Below are positions 11,181-53,311 of a stretch of DNA of 64,000 nucleotides, one piece after another. The notes under the pieces are model-generated. The model worked only from the letters and a program-made list of their open reading frames with translations, did not search any database and was not told the origin of the DNA. Both the position numbers and the translations under genes were made by a program. The stretch's first letter is position 1. Every line of letters starts with the position of its first letter. Source of the DNA: Parcubacteria group bacterium Greene0416_36 (lineage in GTDB: Bacteria > Patescibacteriota > Patescibacteriia > VMEV01); NCBI GenBank assembly GCA_007375725.1, contig VMEV01000006.1:6929-70928 (forward strand), given 5' to 3'.

Positions 11181-11222
11181 GTAACGTAGGGATGCAGCAT
11201 GCTACATCCCTACGTTACTTTT
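11181..11222. terminator. Bidirectional rho-independent terminator hairpin
   Basis: gtaacgtagggatgcagcatgctacatccctacgttac followed by a T-run, between convergent genes. Confidence 0.7.
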
Positions 11223-14888: not shown

Positions 14889-14962
14889 GCACTCGTAGCT
14901 CAACTGGATAGAGCGCAGGCCTCCGAAGCCTGAGGTTACAAGTTCGACCCTTGTCGAGTGCA
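14889..14962 (+). tRNA. tRNA-Arg (anticodon CCG)
   Basis: Acceptor stem GCACTCG/CGAGTGC. D-arm TAGCTCAACTGGATAGAGC. Anticodon loop CTCCGAA. T-arm ACAAGTTCGACCCTTGT. Discriminator A. Confidence 0.85.
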
Positions 14963-15060: not shown

Positions 15061-15807
15061 ATGCACCTCATACAAAAACAAATCCTAAAAATCGCCCAGG
15101 AGCGGAATCTTCGGGAACTGAGTCTTCGCGCAATCGGCGAGCTTATTGGCGAGCCGAATAGCCCGCAGAAGATCAAGCATCATATGGAGAGTCTCATGGC
15201 CAAGGGATTGCTTGTGGCGTCTGAAGATGGTCAGTCGATCACTCCCATGTCCACGACCATTGATCCGAAGTATCGGCTGGCATCGATTCCTATCTATGGC
15301 GCGGCCAATTGCGGGCAGGCGCTCGTATTTGCCCAAGATCATATTGAAGGGTATTTGAAGTTATCTTTCGGTATTCTCGGGCCCAAGAATCTCAAGAAAG
15401 TGGGGGATCTATTCGTACTCAAGGCGGCGGGAACCTCCATGAACCGTGCGGATATAAAAGGGAAGAGTATCGATGACGGCGATTTTGTGATTATCGAGAA
15501 GACGAGCGTGCAACCGGAAGACGGGGCGTATGTGGTCTCGATCATCGACGGCTCCGCCAATATCAAGAAGTTTTTCCACAATAAAGACGAGGGGCAAATT
15601 ATTCTCCTGTCCGAATCCACGCAAAATCACCCGCCGATTTATATTCATGAAAGCGATTATTCGGATTATGTGGTGTGCGGGCGGGTGATCGATGTGATGA
15701 AAAAGCCAGATGAGCTGTGTTTCGTGCGCAACAAGGCGGCTGAGGATATTTTTCGTCAACTGGGGCCAATTTCGAGGGGCGAATATGATTATTATGAAAA
15801 TTTATGA
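15061..15807 (+). CDS. LexA-like transcriptional repressor / S24 peptidase
   Basis: N-terminal LexA-type wHTH (LIQKQILKIAQERNLRELSLRAIGELIG...HMESLMAKGLL). S24 catalytic Ser in AAGTSMN and Lys in ANIKKF. About 50-aa C-terminal extension. Confidence 0.7.
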   Translation: MHLIQKQILKIAQERNLRELSLRAIGELIGEPNSPQKIKHHMESLMAKGLLVASEDGQSITPMSTTIDPKYRLASIPIYGAANCGQALVFAQDHIEGYLKLSFGILGPKNLKKVGDLFVLKAAGTSMNRADIKGKSIDDGDFVIIEKTSVQPEDGAYVVSIIDGSANIKKFFHNKDEGQIILLSESTQNHPPIYIHESDYSDYVVCGRVIDVMKKPDELCFVRNKAAEDIFRQLGPISRGEYDYYENL

Positions 15808-16157
15808 CAAATAAACTCGAACTCCAATTCGGCGATATTGTCTGGGCGGAGTTTGCTCCCAGCGTGGCGCACCGTTATCAGGATAAGAGGCTCGCGGTTG
15901 TGATTCAATCAGCCAAACCACTCGAAAAATCGCGCCTGGTGACCGTGATTCCGCTCTCATCTCTCGTCGAGGAAAAAGGCGAGGACGATATCATGATTTT
16001 CGCCGACCTAAAAAACAAACTCAAACAAGACGCCATCGCCAAGGTCTATTGCATCTCCTCCTTCGATCACTCCCGTTTCACCAAGAAAATCGGCTCGGTC
16101 AGCCCCAAGGTTTCAGCGGATATTAAAAAATATTTGGAGAGGCATTTTGGGATTTAG
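15804..16157 (+). CDS. PemK/MazF-family toxin (putative endoribonuclease)
   Basis: GDIVWAEFAPSVAHRYQDKRLAVVIQS matches the PemK/MazF N-terminal signature. ATGA start/stop overlap with the upstream LexA-like gene. Confidence 0.65.
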   Translation: MTNKLELQFGDIVWAEFAPSVAHRYQDKRLAVVIQSAKPLEKSRLVTVIPLSSLVEEKGEDDIMIFADLKNKLKQDAIAKVYCISSFDHSRFTKKIGSVSPKVSADIKKYLERHFGI

Positions 16158-16179
16158 TTAAAAATTATTTTTTTGTTCT

Positions 16180-17193
16180 ATGATTAAAAATACTGAGCCG
16201 ACAAAAGGGGAAATTCTTATATATCAAACATCGCCCAATGAGCCCCAAATTGAAATCAAAATTGAAAGGGAAACTATTTGGTTAACCTTAAATCAGATTG
16301 CTGAATTGTTTGATGTAGATAAATCAGGTGTTTCTCGCCACATAAAGAATGTTTTTAAATCTAAGGAATTGCAAAAAGAGGCAACTGTTGCAAATTTTGC
16401 AACAGTTCAAAAAGAAGGGGGTAGGCTCCTGAATCGTACTATTGAATACTATAATTTGGATGCCATTGTTTCTGTTGGATACCGCATTAATTCGAAGAAA
16501 GGTACTCAATTCCGTATCTGGGCTAGTCAAATATTAAAGGATCATCTCGTAAAAGGCTTCACACTCAACCCAAAACGGCTTTCTCAAACCGGCCTTGGTG
16601 AATTTGAAAGAGCGCTTCGTCTTATTAAAAGCACGATTGATTCCAAAGACCTTACTGCCGGTGAGGCTAAAGGCATTTTAGATGTGATCACATCCTATGC
16701 GAATTCATGGGTTCTTCTTCAGAAATATGATGAGGGAAGTATTGGGGCTCCAAAGAAGAAAACAACTCCCTCATTCAAACTAGATTATGGAATAGCTAAA
16801 AAGGCAATCAAAAATCTCAAAGAAGATTTGTTGGATAAACAATCTGCTACTGAATTGTTTGGTGCTGAGCGAGATAAAATGCTTGAGGGCGTGTTGGGCA
16901 GTATTTACCAAACCTTTGCCAAAAAAGAGGTTTACCCTAGTATCGAAGAAAAAGCCGCGCATTTACTTTATTTCATTATAAAAGACCACCCCTTCTCTGA
17001 TGGAAACAAGCGCATCGGCGCCTTCCTCTTCATTTATTTTCTCCAGGAAAATAAATATCTCTACAACCAGCAATCCGAGCGAAAAATTAACGATAATGCC
17101 CTCGTCGCTTTGGCCCTCCTCATCGCCCAAAGTGATCCCAAGGAGAAAGAGGTGATGATCAAATTAGTTATGCATTTTTTGGGGAATAGATAA
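16180..17193 (+). CDS. RhuM-family N-terminal domain fused to Doc/Fic domain
   Basis: IWLTLNQIAELFDVDKSGVSRHIKNVF...HYNLDAIVSVGYRINSKKGTQFRIWASQ matches RhuM. C-terminal HPFSDGNKRIGAF is the Doc-type Fic motif (HxFxDGNKR). Confidence 0.65.
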   Translation: MIKNTEPTKGEILIYQTSPNEPQIEIKIERETIWLTLNQIAELFDVDKSGVSRHIKNVFKSKELQKEATVANFATVQKEGGRLLNRTIEYYNLDAIVSVGYRINSKKGTQFRIWASQILKDHLVKGFTLNPKRLSQTGLGEFERALRLIKSTIDSKDLTAGEAKGILDVITSYANSWVLLQKYDEGSIGAPKKKTTPSFKLDYGIAKKAIKNLKEDLLDKQSATELFGAERDKMLEGVLGSIYQTFAKKEVYPSIEEKAAHLLYFIIKDHPFSDGNKRIGAFLFIYFLQENKYLYNQQSERKINDNALVALALLIAQSDPKEKEVMIKLVMHFLGNR

Positions 17194-17220
17194 GAAAACA
17201 GGACGTGATTTATATTGTTA

Positions 17221-17290
17221 TCGTAGGGGCGTACCTGTGTGTGCGCCCTCAACGTGTTGTGTGGGCAGGCCCACAGGCCTGCCCCTACAC
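17221..17290. repeat. GC-rich palindromic element related to family P1 (gtaggggc...gcccctac)
   Basis: cgtaggggcgtacctgtgtgtgcgccctcaacg...gggcaggcccacaggcctgcccctacac. Followed at 17349-17385 by an AT hairpin plus T-run terminator. Confidence 0.6.
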
Positions 17291-17414
17291 AAAAACGAGC
17301 TATCCAGAATTTCCGGATAGCTCGAAAACCGCCCCTAGAACAACAACAACCTAATTGAATTAATCAAATTAGGTTGCGTTTTTTTGTTTGGGTTTCGGAA
17401 AAAAGTTGGGGGCT

Positions 17415-17969
17415 TTATTTTGATCCCTCATTTTTCGCCGCATTATCGGGGAAAATGTTTAAATAAGGGGACCTTAAAACGTAATTTGACATAATTACGT
17501 ATATGGTAAAACCCACCCCAATAATTCCCGCTACAAAATATAAAAGAAGTTTTCTCCATTTATATTTTTCTGTAAGTTCTGCCAGTTTGAACTTGTTTTC
17601 GAGCTGAATTTTTTCTTGTTCTGTTTTTTCTCGAGTTTGTTGCAACTCTATTCTTTTTTCCAGCTCGATTTGTTTCAGGCGAAGCTCCTGTTCGCGGCAT
17701 TTTTGGTAGGCCTCAATTGCCAATTTTTGTTCATTGGCTACGTGATTGAGGTAAGTATTGACGCCTACCGAATCTCCAAGAATGACTTTAAGCACCTCGG
17801 CTTCTATCTTAGGCAGACGAAGTGTATCTTCTCTATTTTCAGGGTCTTTCAGGGAAATCAGAGTCAAGTCCTGTTCTGTTTCCCTTGGGGCGACAGTCGT
17901 TTGTGGTTTTTCTGATTCTTTTTTTTCTTCCATGGCTGGGTCCCTCCCATTTAACTTTTGAAAAAACAA
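17415..17969 (-). CDS. Coiled-coil protein with C-terminal TM anchor, hypothetical
   Basis: Heptad-rich region ELRLKQIELEKRIELQQTREKTEQEK and C-terminal hydrophobic LLLYFVAGIIGVGFTIYVIM. Start possibly at 17933. Confidence 0.4.
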   Translation of the reverse strand: MFFQKLNGRDPAMEEKKESEKPQTTVAPRETEQDLTLISLKDPENREDTLRLPKIEAEVLKVILGDSVGVNTYLNHVANEQKLAIEAYQKCREQELRLKQIELEKRIELQQTREKTEQEKIQLENKFKLAELTEKYKWRKLLLYFVAGIIGVGFTIYVIMSNYVLRSPYLNIFPDNAAKNEGSK

Positions 17970-24495: not shown

Positions 24496-24617
24496 TGTCA
24501 TTGCGAAGCCCCGCGTTTTAGCGGGGATGAAGCAATCTCGTGTCGGGTCCCTCTCTCTATTTCAATACGAGATTGCTTCGCCTCCGCTAAGGCGCGGATT
24601 CTCGCAATGACACGTAT
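24496..24617. repeat. Hairpin repeat family R3, full palindromic dimer
   Basis: gtcattgcgaagccccgcgttttagcggggatgaagcaatctcgtgtcg...acgagattgcttcgcctccgctaaggcgcggattctcgcaatgac. Confidence 0.75.
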
Positions 24618-25834: not shown

Positions 25835-25912
25835 AATCCCTCCCCAACCCTCCCCTTGACAAGGGAGGGCGTTGCTTCCCCCTTGTCAAAGGGGGACTGA
25901 GGGGGATTTGTT
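25835..25912. repeat. REP/MITE-like element family R1, copy 3
   Basis: atccctccccaaccctccccttgacaagggagggcgttgcttcccccttgtcaaagggggactgagggggatttgttg. Confidence 0.85.
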
Positions 25913-28926: not shown

Positions 28927-28961
28927 TGTAGGGGGTCCCGCGTAACGTCCGACCCCCTACA
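28927..28961. terminator. Rho-independent terminator hairpin
   Basis: tgtagggggtcccgcgtaacgtccgaccccctaca plus T-run. Confidence 0.65.
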
Positions 28962-34493: not shown

Positions 34494-34574
34494 AAATCCC
34501 ACCCCAGCCCTCCCTTTGACAAGGGAGGGAGCAGCTTCCCCCTTGTCAAAGGGGGATTGAGGGGGATTTGTTGC
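34494..34574. repeat. REP/MITE-like element family R1, copy 4
   Basis: atcccaccccagccctccctttgacaagggagggagcagcttcccccttgtcaaagggggattgagggggatttgttg. Confidence 0.85.
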
Positions 34575-38611: not shown

Positions 38612-38935
38612 ATGAAAAATTGGAAGACAACTGAAAAAAAAGCGTTCTTGAAAAAAATACAGACATTCGCAGAAAAAGCCCTATCCCAAGCTACGAAAGA
38701 GATGAGCTTCGAGGAGGCAATGAAGGCTTTGGAAAGCGGTGAGAAAAAAAAGGAGCAGACTTTTCTTGACTTGTTTTCTGCTTCTGCCGTAAACAAAATC
38801 TCCCCTCCCACAAAACCCGAGGACTCGGAATTTCTCCAAGTGGTCGGTAAAGATTTCTTGGTTCCCGCATGCGATGGCAAGGCAACGATCATCGGATCGA
38901 GCGGGGTGTTCCATTACATTGATCCCAATTTTTGA
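38612..38935 (+). CDS. Small hypothetical protein, paralog A (inverted duplicate)
   Basis: MKNWKTTEKKAFLKKIQ...PACDGKATIIGSSGVFHYIDPNF. 60-70% identical to the convergent gene 38889-39257. Confidence 0.5.
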   Translation: MKNWKTTEKKAFLKKIQTFAEKALSQATKEMSFEEAMKALESGEKKKEQTFLDLFSASAVNKISPPTKPEDSEFLQVVGKDFLVPACDGKATIIGSSGVFHYIDPNF

Positions 38936-39257
38936 AATTGGGATCAATATATGAGAAAAACCCGTTCGATCCGGCAATGGTTGCTTTGCCATCGCATGCG
39001 GGGATGACAAGATCTTTTTGGATCACTCGAAGGAATTCTGAATTCTGGGGTTTTGGGGGAGGGACATTTGTCGAGCTTGTTTTTATGGTAGAAAACAAGT
39101 CAAACAAAACCTGTTCCATTTTTCTCTCGCCATTCTCCAAAGCCCCCATTGCCTCATCAAAACTGATCTCTTTCGTGGCTTGAGATACGACTTTTTTTGT
39201 AAGTTTTTCTATTTTTTTCAAGAACATTTTTTTTTGAGCAGTTTTCCAATTTTTCAT
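38889..39257 (-). CDS. Small hypothetical protein, paralog B (inverted duplicate)
   Basis: MKNWKTAQKKMFLKKIE...PACDGKATIAGSNGFFSYIDPNF.. 3' end overlaps paralog A across the palindrome at 38918-38948. Confidence 0.5.
   Translation of the reverse strand: MKNWKTAQKKMFLKKIEKLTKKVVSQATKEISFDEAMGALENGERKMEQVLFDLFSTIKTSSTNVPPPKPQNSEFLRVIQKDLVIPACDGKATIAGSNGFFSYIDPNFKNWDQCNGTPRSIR
38918..38948. repeat. Perfect 13-bp inverted repeat (attgatcccaatt / aattgggatcaat, 5-nt spacer) at the junction of the two inverted paralogs
   Basis: Each arm encodes the IDPNF C-terminus of one paralog. Confidence 0.85.
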
Positions 39258-40200: not shown

Positions 40201-40283
40201 CAAATCCCACCCCAACCCTCCCTTTGACAAGGGAGGGAGCAGCAGCCTCCCCCTTGTCAAAGGGGGACTGAGGGGGATTTGTT
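40201..40283. repeat. REP/MITE-like element family R1, copy 5 (between rplJ and rplL)
   Basis: caaatcccaccccaaccctccctttgacaagggagggagcagcagcctcccccttgtcaaagggggactgagggggatttgttg. Confidence 0.85.
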
Positions 40284-41772: not shown

Positions 41773-42177
41773 TTACCTGATCCAAGTCAAAGCCTTTTTC
41801 CAGAGATCTCCACAGTAGGATAATTCCATCATTTCTTCGTCATCAATGCCATAGTGCCGGAGGGTATTATAGAGATGATCAGACAGTCGTTCATAGAGGA
41901 TGTATGGCGACGAAGATTGGGAAGATTCGTGATTTGAAACAATAAATTCCTTTTGCCGGAATAAATTGATCAAATCATAGATCCAGGGTGAACTTCCAAG
42001 GAACGAATAAATATCTTTTTTTTTCCACCCGTATTCCCATAAACTGTGATACAAATAATCCGCTTTGCCTTCTCGTCTTGCCCGTCGAGTCCAATTTTTT
42101 GCCATTTTTGTTTTCCATTTCGAATAAAAAAACCGGATATTTATATTTAAATTAGGGGGAATGGGGGGAAATTGCAA
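41773..42177 (-). CDS. Hypothetical protein (134 aa)
   Basis: Basic, Trp/Tyr-rich. No recognisable domain. Confidence 0.35.
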   Translation of the reverse strand: MQFPPIPPNLNINIRFFYSKWKTKMAKNWTRRARREGKADYLYHSLWEYGWKKKDIYSFLGSSPWIYDLINLFRQKEFIVSNHESSQSSSPYILYERLSDHLYNTLRHYGIDDEEMMELSYCGDLWKKALTWIR

Positions 42178-43365
42178 GATATTATGAAATCAAAATCTCA
42201 AATTCACTCCCCCCTTATCGCCTGGTTCGCCCTCCACCAGCGCGTTTTGCCGTGGCGCGAAATCCGCACTCCTTACCGCTCTTGGATTTCCGAAATCATG
42301 CTTCAACAGACGCAGGTGGACACGGTGGTGCCTTATTTTTTGCGTTGGATGGAGAAGTATCCAGATGTGGAAACATTGTCGAGGGCTTCGGAAGAGGAAA
42401 TAGTGAAGATGTGGGAGGGGCTGGGATATTATTCGCGCGCGAAAAATATTCTAAGAAGCGCCAAAATGATTATGGAACGATGGGGCGGACGGTTTCCGGA
42501 AAATTATGACGATATATTGTCCCTGCCCGGAATAGGGGAGTATACCGCGGGCGCGATTCTGTCGATTGCCATGAAAAAGCCCTATCCGATTGTGGACGGC
42601 AATGTCATGCGCGTGTATTCACGTCTTCTCCGAGACGACACGGACATTTCTTCGACGGCTGGCAAAAAGCATTTCTGGAAAATTGCCGAAAAATACCTGG
42701 ATCGCGAAAAACCCCATTTGTACAATGAGGCTCTTATGGAATTAGGCGCCTTGGTCTGCACTCCGGCCAATCCCAAATGCGCCGTGTGTCCGTGGCACGA
42801 TATTTGCGTAGCTCGCCGTGACAAAAAACAGTCCCTGTATCCCGTCAAAAATAAAAAAAACGACTGTCAAAAACTGAATAAAATTGCGTGGATTATTAGA
42901 AAAGAGGATTTAAAAAAAGGATCCATGATTTGGATTCAAAAAACGCCTATGGGTCAGGCGAGGGGAGGGCTGTGGGAATTCCCGACGGAGGATGTAACGG
43001 GTCAGAGCACGGTTCGTAACCCCGATGCGCCTCGGGGCGGGTTTAAAACCCGCCCCTACCGAGGAGATGCCACATACCTCTGCCGTGTCCAGCATTCCTA
43101 CACGAAATATCGGGTGACCCTGGACGCGTATTGCGTTGAAATTCCAATGGATGGGTCTGATGGTGTAGCGGCGCAGCGCGCTGTGCCCCTACAGGCTTGC
43201 ATAGATAAACAAAACGGCAAATGGGTCGTTTTGGATGAGCTAAAAAACTACACCTTTTCTTCTGGCGCCCGAAAAGTGCTAAAGTACTTACAGAGAATAA
43301 ATCCCTCCCCAACCCTCCCTTTGACAAGGGAGGGAGCTGTTTCCCCCTTGTCAAAGGGGGACTAA
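42172..43365 (+). CDS. mutY: A/G-specific adenine DNA glycosylase MutY (with C-terminal NUDIX-like domain)
   Basis: HhH-GPD region, 4Fe-4S C-x6-C-x2-C-x5-C (CTPANPKCAVCPWHDIC). Contains an in-frame P1 palindrome (43165-43194). 3' end runs into an R1 element. Confidence 0.85.
   Translation: MQDIMKSKSQIHSPLIAWFALHQRVLPWREIRTPYRSWISEIMLQQTQVDTVVPYFLRWMEKYPDVETLSRASEEEIVKMWEGLGYYSRAKNILRSAKMIMERWGGRFPENYDDILSLPGIGEYTAGAILSIAMKKPYPIVDGNVMRVYSRLLRDDTDISSTAGKKHFWKIAEKYLDREKPHLYNEALMELGALVCTPANPKCAVCPWHDICVARRDKKQSLYPVKNKKNDCQKLNKIAWIIRKEDLKKGSMIWIQKTPMGQARGGLWEFPTEDVTGQSTVRNPDAPRGGFKTRPYRGDATYLCRVQHSYTKYRVTLDAYCVEIPMDGSDGVAAQRAVPLQACIDKQNGKWVVLDELKNYTFSSGARKVLKYLQRINPSPTLPLTREGAVSPLSKGD
43165..43194. 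repeat. GC-rich palindrome family P1 (GTAGGGGCACAGCGCGCTGTGCCCCTACA), degenerate copy inside mutY
   Basis: gtagcggcgcagcgcgctgtgcccctacag, read in-frame as VAAQRAVPLQ. Confidence 0.7.
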
Positions 43366-43617: not shown

Positions 43618-43623
43618 ATCTCA

Positions 43624-43668
43624 AAATAAATATAGGGATGTAGCATGCTACATCCCTATATTTATTTT
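43624..43668. terminator. Rho-independent terminator hairpin
   Basis: aaataaatatagggatgtagcatgctacatccctatatttatttt. Same core (gggatg(c/t)agcatgctacatccc) as the hairpin at 11181. Confidence 0.7.
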
Positions 43669-43733
43669 GAGCATTTCTTTCACGAATCTCTCTAAAATGC
43701 TATATTCAGAAAATAAAAAACTCTATTTCTGCT

Positions 43734-49459: not shown

Positions 49460-51541
49460 TTACAAATCCCAAAACTCAAACACCCACACCTTCCCGCCGT
49501 CGATTGGATAAACACTATCCGCGACGGCTTTTGTATTTTGGAGGATACTCTCGAAGTGGGTCCAGTAGGGATGGAGGACGAAATAGGCTTGGTGGACGCC
49601 AGCGATGGCAGCAGCCTGTTTCATAGTCTCGCGCGAGGGCTGCTCGTAAACCATGTCGAGATATTTCTGGTAAAGAGGGGCGCCAGTGGGAATGGAGTAG
49701 AAGAAATTATCACCATAATATTTGCGGAAACCAAATTCACGGAGCGCGGCCGCGCCGAGATTTTGATTGCCGAGGACGATGTATTCTTGGCCATCACTAG
49801 ATGTAGGGGCACAGCGCGCTGTGCCCCTACATCGCGACAATTCTTCAATCTTATGAACCGCCTTGATATCCGACAGAGACACGCTGTACCCGCGTCCGGT
49901 TTCGAAAATATGATGGCGGGGGTAGGAGAAATAGAAAGAGTTAGCGAGGAGAAATACGAGAAAAAGACTTAAAAATAAATGAAACACCCGATTTTTGAGG
50001 CTTTTCTGATAAATGAAATAAAGTCCCGCTAAGAAGAAGGGGAACAGGAAATAGAAGCTCAATTGAATAAGGCGATTGGCATAATCAAGCCGCTCGTATT
50101 CGATGAGATTGCTAAAATTAATGAAGGAGGCGAGAAGGAAGGCGTTGGAGAGGAGGATGAGGAAGGAGGTGAGGAAGAGCGAACGGACCTTTTCAAGTAA
50201 GGGCGTATTGCAATACGCCCTTACGGATAGAGCTACCCCCAATACAACAACGGCCCCATAAATCCAATACACCCCCACCTTCCAAAAATACGCCAAGTCA
50301 TAAAACAGACTGAAATTTTGATTCCATGCCGACCAGTTGAGAAAAGAAAATAGGCTGGAAATAGGGGTAAATCCCTGCCAAGAAAAATTCTCAAAAGGCG
50401 CGCCGGAGAGAATGCCTTGTAGTAAAAATACTGCGGGAACAGCAAAGCAAAGCAGAATTATGGCTGATATTTGAATGAATCGAGGAAAATACTGCTTGAG
50501 TAAAATAAGTATCGGCAAAATAAGCGCGGGAATGCCGACCAGAGGGTGGATGGCGAGAGTGGCGAGGGCGAAAATCCACAGAAGTAAGGGCGTATGGCCA
50601 TACGCCCTTACGAGTAAAGCAGGCTCTATCTTCTGCAAATAAATCCATGCCTCGCACAAAACAAACACCAAAAAGACAGTCGCCAAATTATAAGGCGTGG
50701 GCATGATCCAGTAGGAGAAGGGGAGGATGAGGAGGGTGAAAGGTAATAACAACCATGTCGTGCCTTGTAGGGGCACAGCGCGCTGTGCCCCTAGACCTAG
50801 GGGCGTCGATACAAGCGCCCTCCACACAAAATACGGCACTGCAAAAATACACATCGCCAAGAGTATCTTTTCGATCCAAAAAGGAGATATCGACAAAATT
50901 TTTGCAAAAAACACGACCAAACTATACTGACCGATATAATAAAAAGGTTTGGGCGTAATCGTCCCATGATCCAGAATATATTGCTCGGTCGCTTGGTGAA
51001 TAAACGGATCAAAACCAAATCCGACCGGATAAATAATGAGAGCCGCGGAAACGGAAAAAAGAAAATGGCACGCAATCGCGAAGAGAGCCAAACGCGCCTG
51101 TACACCTTTCTTGATCAAGAGCATCAAAATCCCCGTACAGGCGAAATAGAGGGCGAAGAATTCGGAGCCGACTTGCTCCCAGGGAGAACGGATACTATCC
51201 CAGGTTCGGTGGAGATAGAGATAGTAGGTGAGACAGGCGAGGAGGGTGGCTACCCAAAACCAAGAGCATCCCCGAGGTAAGGGCGTATTGCAATACGCCC
51301 TTACCGACATGGGTAGGGCTGGTGGAAGTAAGGGTACAGCCGCGGCTTGGTGGAGCGACAGGCTCAGGATGACAAGGGTGTGGGATATTAAGGACAATAT
51401 AACAACAATAGCGAGCATCGGCGTGCTCAAATCAACAATATAAAACAGCGCCGTGCCCCAAATAGCGACTAGGGCGAAAAAAAGCATGAGGCTTCTCATC
51501 AGGCCAAATTTGCTGTATGTTTTTAATAAAGTTTTAATCAT
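49460..51541 (-). CDS. Large polytopic membrane protein (putative GT-C-type glycosyltransferase/polymerase-like) carrying five in-frame palindromic insertions
   Basis: At least 12 predicted TM helices. C-terminal soluble domain. ATG at 51541 (the ORF track starts at TTG 51547). Contains P1 copies at 49802-49831 and 50766-50794, and P2 copies at 50197-50224, 50584-50611 and 51277-51304. Confidence 0.6.
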   Translation of the reverse strand: MIKTLLKTYSKFGLMRSLMLFFALVAIWGTALFYIVDLSTPMLAIVVILSLISHTLVILSLSLHQAAAVPLLPPALPMSVRAYCNTPLPRGCSWFWVATLLACLTYYLYLHRTWDSIRSPWEQVGSEFFALYFACTGILMLLIKKGVQARLALFAIACHFLFSVSAALIIYPVGFGFDPFIHQATEQYILDHGTITPKPFYYIGQYSLVVFFAKILSISPFWIEKILLAMCIFAVPYFVWRALVSTPLGLGAQRAVPLQGTTWLLLPFTLLILPFSYWIMPTPYNLATVFLVFVLCEAWIYLQKIEPALLVRAYGHTPLLLWIFALATLAIHPLVGIPALILPILILLKQYFPRFIQISAIILLCFAVPAVFLLQGILSGAPFENFSWQGFTPISSLFSFLNWSAWNQNFSLFYDLAYFWKVGVYWIYGAVVVLGVALSVRAYCNTPLLEKVRSLFLTSFLILLSNAFLLASFINFSNLIEYERLDYANRLIQLSFYFLFPFFLAGLYFIYQKSLKNRVFHLFLSLFLVFLLANSFYFSYPRHHIFETGRGYSVSLSDIKAVHKIEELSRCRGTARCAPTSSDGQEYIVLGNQNLGAAALREFGFRKYYGDNFFYSIPTGAPLYQKYLDMVYEQPSRETMKQAAAIAGVHQAYFVLHPYWTHFESILQNTKAVADSVYPIDGGKVWVFEFWDL
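49802..49831. repeat. GC-rich palindrome family P1, copy in membrane-protein gene (read CRGTARCAPT)
   Basis: tgtaggggcacagcgcgctgtgcccctaca. Perfect 30-bp palindrome, about 70% GC. Confidence 0.85.
50197..50224. repeat. Palindrome family P2 (GTAAGGGCGTATTGCAATACGCCCTTAC), copy 1 (read VRAYCNTPL)
   Basis: Perfect 28-bp palindrome inside the CDS. Confidence 0.85.
50584..50611. repeat. Palindrome family P2, copy 2 (GTAAGGGCGTATGGCCATACGCCCTTAC; read VRAYGHTPL)
   Basis: Perfect palindrome with a centre variant. Confidence 0.85.
50766..50794. repeat. GC-rich palindrome family P1, second copy in membrane-protein gene (read GAQRAVPLQ)
   Basis: tgtaggggcacagcgcgctgtgcccctag. Confidence 0.85.
51277..51304. 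repeat. Palindrome family P2, copy 3 (read VRAYCNTPL)
   Basis: gtaagggcgtattgcaatacgcccttac. Confidence 0.85.
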
Positions 51542-53269
51542 ATGCAAGAGTCAATGCAAGCATTTATAGCTAAATTTCGTAATTTTTTAAATAGGCCGAA
51601 GGTACGAGAATACGCTCCTTTCTTTATTTTAGCGTGTTTTCTGTTTCCGCTATACTCTTACCTCTATTGGACCACGGGTAATCTATTCAATTCTCCGGAT
51701 GAGACGGCCGCTTCTTTCTTTTCACGACTTTATATTGAAACCGGGACTTTTTCATACACCGAACCTTTTAATTCACTGCTTCCCGGGTGGATCCACCCAC
51801 GAAGCATGGTGATTGAAAATGGAACCGTTCTGCCTATCTCTTTTCTGGGGATTTTATTGTTTTTAGGAACTCTTGGCGGAATAGTAGGACCGTGGAGCAT
51901 TCCCTATATCATCCCGCTCCTGTCGGCGATTATTCCTCTATTTTTCTACGGATTTGCCAAACATATTTTCTCATCAAAAACTGCTTTTTGGAGTGCGATT
52001 TTATTGGCCATACATCCGGCTATTATCTACTATAACGAAAGGAATTTTCTGCCAAATGCCTTATTTCTCGATATTTTCATTTTATTCCTCTTCTTTTTTT
52101 TCGCCTGGATATCATGGAAACAGAAGCAAAAATGGATTTTCGCGGTATCGAGTTCGTCTCTCTTGGCACTGCTTATTTCTATTCGACTCTTTGAGGCCAT
52201 ATGGCTGGGGCCGCTGGTACTGATCTTATGCATTCTGTTTTGGAAGAAGAATTCGATGAAAGAATGGCTGATGTGGGGAATATTATGCTCGCTCTTCATG
52301 ACACCTCTCTTGGCGGGTCAATGGATCACATACGGATCTCCCTTTAAAACAGGATATGGCATCACTGGGGATATTATTCCGCCGCCGGAACCATCCGAGG
52401 TAATTGGAGAGCCTGCGATACCCCCCGAACCACCGATTCCAGAACCCCCCGCATGCAAAAGCGTCGAGTGCCTGCCCGGATTCAACAAGGTCTTTCCTTT
52501 TGGCCTAGACCGATATAATATCACTCATAATTTCCAGGCTATTGGCGTGAACCTCTTGGGCATAATTTTCCTGCCTTGTCTTGTTGGGCTTCTTTTATTT
52601 TTCTGGAAAGAAAAGGCCTTTCCTCAAAGAGTTTACAGTGTTTTGGCGCTAGGCATTGCTTTGTATCTCATTGCGGTTTATGGAAGCTGGGGAGTCCGGG
52701 ATAATATCAATCCAAATATTACGACTATTGGACTATCCCATGTGCGCTATTGGCTGCCGATCTGGGCTTTCTTCCTGCCTTTTAGCGCGTACCTTTATCT
52801 CAAAATTACCCGGGGAAACAAAATAGCCATGAGCATAATTATTCTAGGACTATCCATTTACTCAGGAAAAGTCGTCTTGGGATCTTCTGAAGACAGCATT
52901 CATCATGTGTTAGCCAGCATCCGCCACTATCAGCAAGTCCAGAATGATTTTTCCGCTTTGGCTCCCGAGGACTCCATCATCATTTCCGAACGCAGCGACA
53001 AAATTTTCTTTCCCAAGTATCGCGTGATTTCAGTTCCCGATAAGAATTACGTGCATGTGTTTTCTCATATCCAAAAACTTTTAGAACAAGCTCCGATTTA
53101 TTTTTATACCCAAATGCCCGATTCCGATATCCAATACCTCCAGTCCCGGCATTTAGAATTTCAGGGGCTTTATTTTAAAGAAGTAAAGAAGTGGGAGGAT
53201 GGGTTTAGGATGCACGTCATCCGCGATCAACAAATCCCCCTTAATCCCCCTTTGACAAGGGGGACATAG
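51542..53269 (+). CDS. GT-C fold glycosyltransferase (ArnT/PMT-like, family 39/83)
   Basis: Polytopic membrane protein. First extracytoplasmic loop has NSPDETAASFF (DE motif). 575 aa. 3' end runs into an R1 element (..PLNPPLTRGT). Confidence 0.6.
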   Translation: MQESMQAFIAKFRNFLNRPKVREYAPFFILACFLFPLYSYLYWTTGNLFNSPDETAASFFSRLYIETGTFSYTEPFNSLLPGWIHPRSMVIENGTVLPISFLGILLFLGTLGGIVGPWSIPYIIPLLSAIIPLFFYGFAKHIFSSKTAFWSAILLAIHPAIIYYNERNFLPNALFLDIFILFLFFFFAWISWKQKQKWIFAVSSSSLLALLISIRLFEAIWLGPLVLILCILFWKKNSMKEWLMWGILCSLFMTPLLAGQWITYGSPFKTGYGITGDIIPPPEPSEVIGEPAIPPEPPIPEPPACKSVECLPGFNKVFPFGLDRYNITHNFQAIGVNLLGIIFLPCLVGLLLFFWKEKAFPQRVYSVLALGIALYLIAVYGSWGVRDNINPNITTIGLSHVRYWLPIWAFFLPFSAYLYLKITRGNKIAMSIIILGLSIYSGKVVLGSSEDSIHHVLASIRHYQQVQNDFSALAPEDSIIISERSDKIFFPKYRVISVPDKNYVHVFSHIQKLLEQAPIYFYTQMPDSDIQYLQSRHLEFQGLYFKEVKKWEDGFRMHVIRDQQIPLNPPLTRGT

Positions 53270-53311
53270 CGCCCTCCCTTGTCAAAGGGAGGGTTGGGGA
53301 GGGATTTGTTG
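53229..53311. repeat. REP/MITE-like element family R1, copy 9 (inverted orientation)
   Basis: aaatcccccttaatccccctttgacaagggggacatagcgccctcccttgtcaaagggagggttggggagggatttgttg. Confidence 0.85.

Follow-up and report, generated by a model that had tools for sequence, protein, structure and literature searches.

How does one gene of a Parcubacterium come to hold five short palindromes, all of them in frame, and what kind of element do these palindromes represent? The question is posed by a 64,000-nucleotide (nt) stretch of the genome of Parcubacteria group bacterium Greene0416_36 (assembly GCA_007375725.1, contig VMEV01000006.1, positions 6,929 to 70,928), hereafter the window, in which a minus-strand gene (49460-51547) for a polytopic membrane protein of 695 amino acids (aa) contains copies of two 28-bp palindromes, P1 (GTAGGGGCACAGCGCGCTGTGCCCCTAC) and P2 (GTAAGGGCGTATTGCAATACGCCCTTAC). 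A previous inspection of the letters and open reading frames (ORFs), referred to here as the sequence-only reading, described them as in-frame insertions resembling the Rickettsia palindromic elements (RPEs), in a genome that it placed, tentatively but correctly, within the candidate phyla radiation (CPR). The evidence presented below argues that P1 and P2 are very probably 28-bp double-foot GTAG repetitive extragenic palindromes (REPs), belonging to the system of the REP-associated tyrosine transposases (RAYT, or TnpA_REP) of subclass 2.4 (group 4). This assignment removes a false lead, in that the palindromes would constitute not a new CPR-specific mobile element but part of a known REP/RAYT system.

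Palindromes in the Membrane-Protein Gene

All five copies are located within one uninterrupted ORF, as had been claimed for a gene of about 690 codons, and neither palindrome pattern was matched even once in 100 dinucleotide-preserving shuffles. The first P1 copy, P1a (49803-49830), is a double-foot GTAG REP without mismatches, read as CRGTARCAPT (aa 573-582), and its palindrome runs on for 3 nt on each side (49800-49833). The second, P1b (50767-50794), has a single mismatch, the last C being replaced by G, which converts the foot from CTAC to CTAG, and it is read as (L)GAQRAVPLQ (aa 253-261), so that one and the same palindromic DNA is translated in two different frames within one protein. 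The three remaining copies are GTAA-foot REPs. P2a (50197-50224) and P2c (51277-51304) are exact, both being read as VRAYCNTPL (aa 442-450 and aa 82-90, the latter in a hypervariable N-terminal loop), and P2b (50584-50611; interior GTATGGCCATAC), read as VRAYGHTPL (aa 313-321), differs from P2 by two compensatory changes, TTGCAA to TGGCCA, by which the palindrome stays perfect. Four of the five copies are thus still perfect palindromes, P1b with its mutated foot being the exception. A possible decayed P1-like copy at 51329-51356 (GTAAGGGTACAGCCGCGGCT..., read as AAAVPLL) may be added with low confidence, as its left arm agrees with P1 at 11 of 13 positions and its right arm is unmatched.

The GC content of P1 is 71%, close to the previously stated value of about 70%, and that of P2 is 50%, versus 38-50% for the window. 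A basal GGGC/GCCC stem adjoins the foot, and a 12-bp stem is predicted. When folded as DNA, P1 yields -13.2 kcal/mol and both P2 and P2b -11.8 kcal/mol, values that no shuffled sequence equals, with z-scores of -5 to -6.5; no RNA family in Rfam overlaps any of the palindromes. As to the feet, the P1 copy at 49803 and a further copy at 43165, in mutY, carry GTAG...CTAC. The three P2 copies carry GTAA...TTAC, as does a fourth GTAA-foot variant (GTAAGGGCACAAAATTTTGTGCCCTTAC), a perfect palindrome read in frame as CKGTKFCALT within a Mur-ligase gene 9 kb upstream of the window (L241:777-804).

Insertion into Tolerant Loops

The membrane protein was aligned with 69 homologues of 29-39% identity, and length excess was measured between well-occupied anchor columns. 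All 69 are gapped exactly at CRGTARCAPT, at GAQRAVPLQ, at VRAYGHTPL and at the second VRAYCNTPL, the query exceeding the homologue median by 13 aa at P1a, by 9 aa at P1b, by 9 aa at P2b and by about 5 aa at P2a. The loop that houses P2c, with the first VRAYCNTPL, differs in length across all the sequences, and insertion is not provable there. The alignment of orthologues, proposed earlier as a check, thus supports insertion at four of the five sites, with length excesses that are not constant. An AlphaFold2 model built from 50 sequences (mean predicted local distance difference test score, pLDDT, 86.8; predicted template modeling score 0.91) bears on the earlier statement that the palindromes reside in loops. 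The only segments with pLDDT below 50 are residues 72-83, 253-260, 310-316 and 582-584, of which the first three overlap the peptides encoded by P2c, P1b and P2b, and the last starts at the final residue of CRGTARCAPT and continues beyond it. P1a and P2a are found in inter-helix or helix-strand loops of intermediate confidence (block mean pLDDT 67-68 and 75, respectively), P2a occupying a three-residue break between two helices.

A similar situation is presented by mutY (42172-43365, plus strand; HhH-GPD and NUDIX_4 domains in Pfam; E = 6e-70 to a MutY in PDB). The in-frame copy that had been noticed in its C-terminal domain is indeed present at 43165-43192, with two mismatches to P1, and is read as VAAQRAVPLQ; hardly any of 90 aligned homologues has residues opposite AAQRAVPLQ, again in agreement with the proposed check. 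This copy is decaying, as two uncompensated substitutions in its left arm break the hairpin (-6.3 kcal/mol, z = -0.5). A second hairpin in mutY, at 43028-43062 (CCTCG-GGGCGGGTTTAAAACCCGCCCC-TAC-CGAGG, labeled by its peptide APRGGFKTRPYRGD), is imperfect, with one foot only (CTAC) and a folding energy of -14.5 kcal/mol; it was considered as another insertion and rejected, since no net length gain is seen in the alignment. A constant insertion size was likewise considered and rejected: across the alignments of the membrane protein, MutY and a P1-containing DHPS of Peribacteria (the latter exceeding a 66%-identical PDB homologue by 13 aa), the excesses of 9, 9, 13, 13 and about 5 aa reveal no fixed increment.

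Could these segments be ancestral parts of the protein, or is the gene simply no longer functional? The sequence-only reading had itself raised the first of these options, in the form of an internal peptide-repeat module, and the second as a way in which ORF continuity might be accidental. Beyond the fact of repetition, nothing speaks for either option, or for an assembly artefact. Homologues of about 700 aa align colinearly with the ORF, which is full-length, the structural model is confident, and the model matches glycosyltransferases of the GT-C fold, if with weak scores, so that a pseudogene is not indicated. As to assembly, the contig sequence is common to the NCBI, ENA and Logan assemblies, and four contigs on record encode the membrane protein. 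The homologues do not possess the segments, and insertion, together with the use of two frames of the same DNA, rules out both the ancestral module and the pseudogene; the three options taken together are hardly credible. The palindromes are insertions relative to the orthologues, in tolerant loops, and are translated in two frames. Databases provide no empty-site allele, the nearest homologue of the membrane protein, apart from the identical record described next, being only 38% identical. On the practical side, such inserts point out where a protein that is otherwise conserved can accommodate a loop extended by some 9-13 residues.

The host protein is 100% identical to G01um101418_146 in NCBI (Uncharacterized protein, Parcubacteria group bacterium Gr01-1014_18). 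It has 229 homologues, the next best after the identical record showing 38% identity, and the family, mostly from CPR, is unannotated, one match carrying PF20176. No match to the protein was obtained in profile searches of Pfam, NCBIfam or PDB. The best Foldseek matches in PDB are AglB, AftA, ArnT and AftB, all weak (E about 1e-3, TM 0.33-0.47), and the gene adjoins a PMT_2-like gene within a glycosyltransferase-rich region; judged by the predicted structure, the product is probably a glycosyltransferase of the GT-C fold. The start of the gene overlaps that of the divergent PMT_2-like gene (51542-53269), beginning 6 nt inside it. In the same loops, homologues from other CPR (P0010, P0017, P0040, P0047 and P0064) display unrelated repeat-like peptides, such as SPLAKGARGMF, LPCHPESLPCHPE... 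and SECQRRILLEYQTLVNTRSFAVAQDDSS, which suggests that the loops of this protein gather different palindromic repeats in different genomes.

Distribution of P1 and P2 across Phyla

Sequences outside the window are decisive for the identification of the elements. The exact P1 28-mer is present in more than 115 loci among the matches listed, in taxa as diverse as Terriglobia, Chloroflexia, Dehalococcoidia and Anaerolineae (Chloroflexota), Peribacteria, Planctomycetota, Omnitrophota, Margulisiibacteriota, Nitrospinota, Bacteroidota and others. With only the outer 8 + 8 bases fixed (GTAGGGGC-N12-GCCCCTAC), the generic pattern occurs on more than 120 viral contigs; 79 of 146 interiors, those of P2 and P2b included, are perfect 12-nt palindromes, and 33 more match at 5 of 6 positions. 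The claim that P2 is confined to a single gene stands for the window, but not for nature, as exact P2 with its GTAA foot is encountered on 20 metagenome contigs of 34-67% GC. The P1 family is real as well, though its unit had been taken to be 30 bp: in 87 of 116 P1 copies the palindrome ends at GTAG/CTAC, as chance predicts, which defines a sharp unit of 28 bp. Neither a consensus in the flanks nor a duplication of the target site is apparent around the same 116 copies, and the flanks are no more complementary than chance predicts.

Two further potential signatures of insertion were considered in this connection and were not retained. One is the interpretation of GTA/TAC as a duplication of TA at a GTAC target, which is inseparable from the foot being part of the element and was dropped, since copies within RAYT genes have kept the foot as well. 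The other is the palindromic extension of the flanks, which amounts to 6 nt in the Mur-ligase copy, to the 3 nt already described for P1a, and to at least 5 nt in 5 of the 20 metagenomic P2 copies; it is absent from GTAG-foot copies, apart from the 3 nt of P1a, and one of the P2 cases is a fold-back at a contig end. In that case (L263:13802-13874) the symmetry around P2 continues for 45 nt, as far as the end of the contig, suggesting an assembly fold-back at the hairpin. Another P2 copy, on a 1-kb contig (L262:538-565), has palindromic flanks of 8 nt. In metagenome assemblies, contigs may break at such perfect palindromes or acquire artefacts because of them.

In other genomes P1 copies are mostly intergenic, the longest ORF spanning them having a median length of 124 aa, versus 377 aa at random positions. 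Where the copies are intragenic, the two stop-free frames are used equally, with 17 cases of xRGTARCAPT and 17 of VGAQRAVPLx. By a crude ORF criterion, and in a small sample, strictly intragenic P1 copies make up 6 of 13 in metagenome-assembled genomes (MAGs) of Peribacteria, 2 of 28 in Terriglobia and 15 of 75 in others. The Peribacteria genes concerned encode a DinG-like exonuclease-helicase, ComEC, DHPS and mevalonate-diphosphate decarboxylase. A Ham1 gene (L206), originally counted as an intragenic case, was removed when the copy turned out to be upstream of the real start, and the intragenic criterion was then tightened. In one Terriglobia MAG, SPRUCE_281 (Acidobacteriota; loci L121-L232), P1 is situated within a longer conserved repeat, gcggggccgggc-P1-aagatgcacatc, with at least 20 copies in the loci listed, nearly all of them outside genes by the ORF-length criterion.

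This distribution is pertinent to the possibility that the hairpins are kept because they serve the host gene, be it through mRNA structure, pausing, internal termination or the peptides that they add to loops of the glycosyltransferase, and are not selfish insertions. The hairpins are stable as DNA (-12 to -13 kcal/mol, with the z-scores given above), some of their intergenic relatives reside between convergent genes with flanking A/T-runs, like bidirectional terminators, and selection of this kind draws some support from the clustering in one gene, which is unexplained. Yet the same 28-mers are found in unrelated genes and, in other phyla, mostly between genes, the peptides are absent from the homologues, three of them fall into very-low-confidence segments of the model, and one sequence is read in two frames. 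Host selection is therefore a very unlikely explanation.

Link to RAYT Genes

Evidence for the REP/RAYT assignment also comes from transposase genes themselves. When the P1 loci were searched by tblastn, with the RayT of E. coli and then with the first match, a RAYT-like gene was detected at 11 of 115. In five of these loci (L127, L138, L153, L204, and L214), P1 is found inside the RAYT ORF, right after the HUH motif, in the layout …MPNHFHGII..DD-CRGTARCAPT-..FGKM..SLPAIIRSFKSAVTK…WQRNYYEH…YIVNNP; at the same site, decayed P1 copies are present in L205 and L215, and another GTAG palindrome in L186. One of the five, L204, is a Candidatus Peribacteria MAG, and thus CPR bacteria do carry RAYT with P1 inside. 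The ORF scores 24.7 bits against Y1_Tnp of Pfam (gathering cutoff 23) and 77.1 bits against REP_Tyr_transpos of NCBIfam, just below the 80-bit cutoff. According to Quentin et al. (2018; PMC6006769), transposases of subclass 2.4 (Bertels group 4) share NH[IFV]H, WQ and YIxNNP motifs, their median length being 194 aa, and the ORFs found here contain MPNH[FILV]HG, VWQRNYYEH and EYIxNNP in 180-205 aa. The same subclass is associated with "double foot" REPs, with GT[AG]G at the 5' and C[TC]AC at the 3' end, and in-frame REPs occur inside its tnpA_REP genes (PMC6006769).

The pattern extends beyond P1. In 76 of 120 RAYT homologues, many of them named "REP element-mobilizing transposase RayT" at source, a peptide [RK]G-x4-A[PL][TAS] is recognized no more than 70 residues past the HUH motif; RG-x4-APT is the translation of GTAGGGGC-N12-GCCCCTAC, and in 70 of the 76 the four interior residues are encodable by a perfect 12-nt palindrome. 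The P1 peptide RGTARCAPT is present in 11 of the homologues, RGVLQYAPT (the interior of P2) in 5, and GVWPYA (the interior of P2b) in 4 further ones. For annotators of CPR and metagenomic genomes, this means that RG-x4-APT, VGA-x4-PL and VRA-x4-PL are to be expected as translations of REPs and not as protein motifs.

As to P2, its feet are outside the GT[AG]G definition of the double-foot GTAG REPs, and the connection is made by co-occurrence. The P2 interior with GTAG feet both flanks and fills RAYT genes (L243, L244); in the REPtron of L244, GTAGGGGCGTATTGCAATACGCCCCTAC recurs 19 nt upstream of the RAYT start (46 nt start to start), within the RAYT gene, and overlapping the stop of that gene. 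Exact P2 is situated directly downstream of RAYT in L246, one of the 20 metagenome contigs. In L265 (1169-3885), another REPtron, five double-foot copies are found in 4.5 kb, among them GTAA-foot and GTAG-foot copies with the same interior, the interiors otherwise differing by compensatory G to A and C to T changes. One of the copies in L265 is inside a gene for a methyltransferase of an Eco57I/MmeI-type restriction-modification system. Considering the GTAA and GTAG copies of identical interior in L265, and the P2 interior in the RAYT genes of L243 and L244, P2 is, judged by its letters, a foot variant of the double-foot GTAG REPs and not a canonical member. At the level of sequence, then, P1 has the features that define these REPs, and P2 departs from the strict foot definition yet is tied to them by co-occurrence.

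Comparison with Known Systems

The palindromes agree with the double-foot GTAG REPs of PMC6006769 in the 5' GTAG and 3' CTAC feet, in a fully paired GC-rich stem, in being scattered across many phyla, and in having copies beside the transposase gene and in frame inside it, between the HuH and Tyr motifs. They differ in that the window is devoid of a transposase gene, half of the copies have the GTAA/TTAC foot, and the P1/P2 monomers of the window are all inside non-transposase genes. Intragenic location has its own precedent: GTAG and CGTC REPs were described wholly within ORFs, sometimes two per ORF and frequently in genes of replication and repair (Di Nocera et al., 2013; PMC3733652). Similar to these, P1 and P2 encode short peptides inside ORFs, affect repair genes (mutY here, the DinG-like helicase elsewhere), and display complementary stem changes. 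The REPs surveyed in that study, in phyla that did not include CPR, have one unpaired foot and a loop of 2-3 nt and, where intragenic, are mostly dimers, and P1/P2 are unlike them in being zero-spacer perfect palindromes with two feet, with up to 5-7 in one gene. REPINs, in which two inverted REPs form the mobile unit of RAYT (Bertels and Rainey, 2011; PMC3116915), contain a spacer, are extragenic, and are linked mainly to RAYT groups 2 and 3 in Proteobacteria, and their layout is seen in the window in the dimer at 17223-17290 (described below).

A separate origin, as independent, lineage-specific in-frame palindromes of the RPE kind or of the kind of miniature inverted-repeat transposable elements (MITEs), unrelated to REP/RAYT, would account for the same behavior, palindromic DNA in frame in loops of functional proteins. 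Classical elements of the RPE-1 type are about 100-150 bp long and are not known outside Rickettsia. The likeness that had been drawn to RPEs holds for behavior, these also being palindromic repeats translated as surface loops in functional genes, but not for family membership, since P1 and P2 are 28-bp, pan-bacterial and RAYT-linked, P1 being identical in the many loci listed above. Nor is the structure that of a MITE: the unit is a single zero-spacer palindrome without separate terminal inverted repeats, and the 116 P1 copies show neither direct repeats nor a flank consensus. Moreover, the short RPE-4 and RPE-6 have themselves been equated with, and reclassified as, CGTC-tagged REPs (PMC3733652). 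With identical sequences in many phyla, inside or beside RAYT genes, such an independent origin is highly improbable.

Double-foot REPs (PMC6006769) and intragenic REPs (PMC3733652) being already known, the present case is unusual in degree, not in kind. What is new is the CPR host, a single GT-C-like gene with 5-7 copies, and the GTAA...TTAC foot variant on some of the copies. Among the papers listed in the searchable literature, none was found to link REPs with CPR/Patescibacteria, and in this sense the earlier remark that the behavior is uncharacterized in the lineage appears to be right.

Proposed Mechanism and Present-Day Activity

By analogy with the biochemistry of Y1 HUH transposases, the hairpin would form on single-stranded DNA, and the transposase would recognize the stem and the GTAG foot, cut there, and copy or move the unit to new single-stranded sites. 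Such binding of the single-stranded REP hairpin and cleavage at the GTAG foot are known for the E. coli TnpA_REP, and for that enzyme only (PMC3733652; PMC6006769). Insertions within genes would last only in surface loops and with an open frame; one of the three frames holds TAG or TAA, and both of the others are used. Perfect symmetry would be kept if only well-paired hairpins serve as substrates, from which compensated variants such as P2b would follow. As a copy of the hairpin resides within the transposase gene, the transfer of one gene of about 600 bp would bring in both enzyme and substrate, and it is plausible that identical 28-mers in distant phyla result from such joint movement; a hairpin traveling inside a transposase gene may thus help explain them. 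The small sequence space of the interior (4^6 variants) may also contribute.

Several points weigh against this interpretation. No RAYT gene was found, by tblastn with the E. coli RayT and a subclass 2.4 RAYT, in the window or in about 22 kb of flanking contig (about 86 kb together), loci L238-L242 included. The feet of P2 and of the Mur-ligase copy do not conform to GT[AG]G, and among 230 RAYT homologues none has a symmetric GTAA-foot internal copy: the peptide is R..P in 162, K..P in 12, and K..L in one, in a flanking copy. A chimeric RAYT query containing CKGVLQYALT likewise failed to bring up a RAYT in which the insert has symmetric GTAA feet, or any RAYT from the source MAG. The length excesses in the membrane protein are not constant, and a unit of 28 nt cannot itself preserve the frame, so that the insertion junctions are undefined. 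The REP/RAYT model does not explain why five copies are in one gene, and no system has so far provided an in vivo demonstration of REP transposition by RAYT (PMC3733652; PMC6006769).

Some of the same observations suggest that the copies may be orphan relics, that is, double-foot REPs in a genome without a cognate RAYT, immobile, and either inherited or seeded by a transient or horizontally supplied enzyme. This proposal differs from the preferred one on present-day activity only. It is consistent with the absence of RAYT from the 86 kb read, with the visible decay of the mutY copy (two uncompensated changes), of the P1b foot and of the possible copy at 51329, and with a GTAA foot that departs from the motif reported to be recognized by RAYT (PMC6006769). 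However, perfect symmetry is retained in the Mur-ligase copy and in all copies of the membrane-protein gene but P1b, pointing to recent origin or ongoing symmetrization, the Peribacteria MAG of L204 encodes RAYT with P1 inside, and 86 kb is a small part of the source genome. We consider the relic status a serious possibility, albeit a somewhat doubtful one.

A more speculative proposal concerns the host. In CPR, with their little intergenic DNA, double-foot REPs could survive preferentially in coding loops, envelope genes could act as sinks or hot spots accumulating 5-7 copies, and the symmetric GTAA variant, the flanks of which are sometimes palindromic, could mark another route of insertion or mobilization in trans by a transposase from outside the episymbiont genome. 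It is based on the 6 of 13 intragenic copies in Peribacteria and on the six P1/P2 monomers of the window and the Mur-ligase copy, all of which are intragenic, and we regard it as rather unlikely. Returning to double-foot REPs of the subclass 2.4 system in general, the source genome, with many intragenic copies, two types of feet and graded decay, offers a compact setting in which to study how hairpins of 28 nt come to be part of a reading frame.

Other Hairpins and Neighboring Features

At least eight double-foot copies and one dimer are present in the 86 kb, five of the former in the one gene. The dimer, at 17223-17290 (68 nt), confirms the intergenic relative reported previously near this position. 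Two single-foot GTAG REPs of different sequence are joined in it in inverted orientation, with the feet outside, in a REPIN-like layout in which GTAG and an 8-bp stem are followed by a 14-nt spacer and then by a 9-bp stem and CTAC (-19.5 kcal/mol, z = -3.6). Another intergenic palindrome, at 11186-11213, is a 28-bp double-foot unit of different sequence (GTAGGGATGCAGCATGCTACATCCCTAC, one mismatch), positioned between convergent genes and flanked by an A-run and a T-run. The same interior with an ATAG/CTAT foot is found between genes at 43633-43658, in the center of a perfect palindrome of 52 bp (43620-43671). A terminator-like intergenic hairpin at 28928-28960 has a 10-bp stem, a 13-nt loop and A/T-run flanks, and, like the dimer at 17223 and the palindrome at 11186, it carries GTAG...CTAC.

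A second hairpin family, CCCTTTGACAAGGGAGGG-(14-18 nt)-CCCCCTTGTCAAAGGG, is recognized at the 3' ends of genes, where it is often read into the tail of the ORF, as in mutY and the PMT_2-like gene. Its sites in the window are 2243-2288, 25856-25889, 34512-34553, 40220-40264, 43317-43358 and 53248-53289, with further sites at L238:3443-3464 and 17156-17177, and it resembles terminator-type REPs of another sequence class. A large imperfect palindrome at 38803-39063, with 129-nt arms of 77% complementarity and a 3-nt spacer, extends over a pair of small convergent ORFs and has the appearance of a coding segment duplicated in inverted orientation. An intergenic pair of 46-nt inverted repeats (TGTCATTGCGAAGCCCCGCG...) at 24496-24612 is 80% complementary, the repeats being 25 nt apart. 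Finally, a small island of accessory genes (15061-17969) is situated beside the REP dimer and encodes a LexA-like S24 peptidase, a RhuM/Fic gene product, a weakly DUF5677-like ORF, and a small ORF that is MazF-like by eye only; a tRNA gene (14889-14962) is located near this island.

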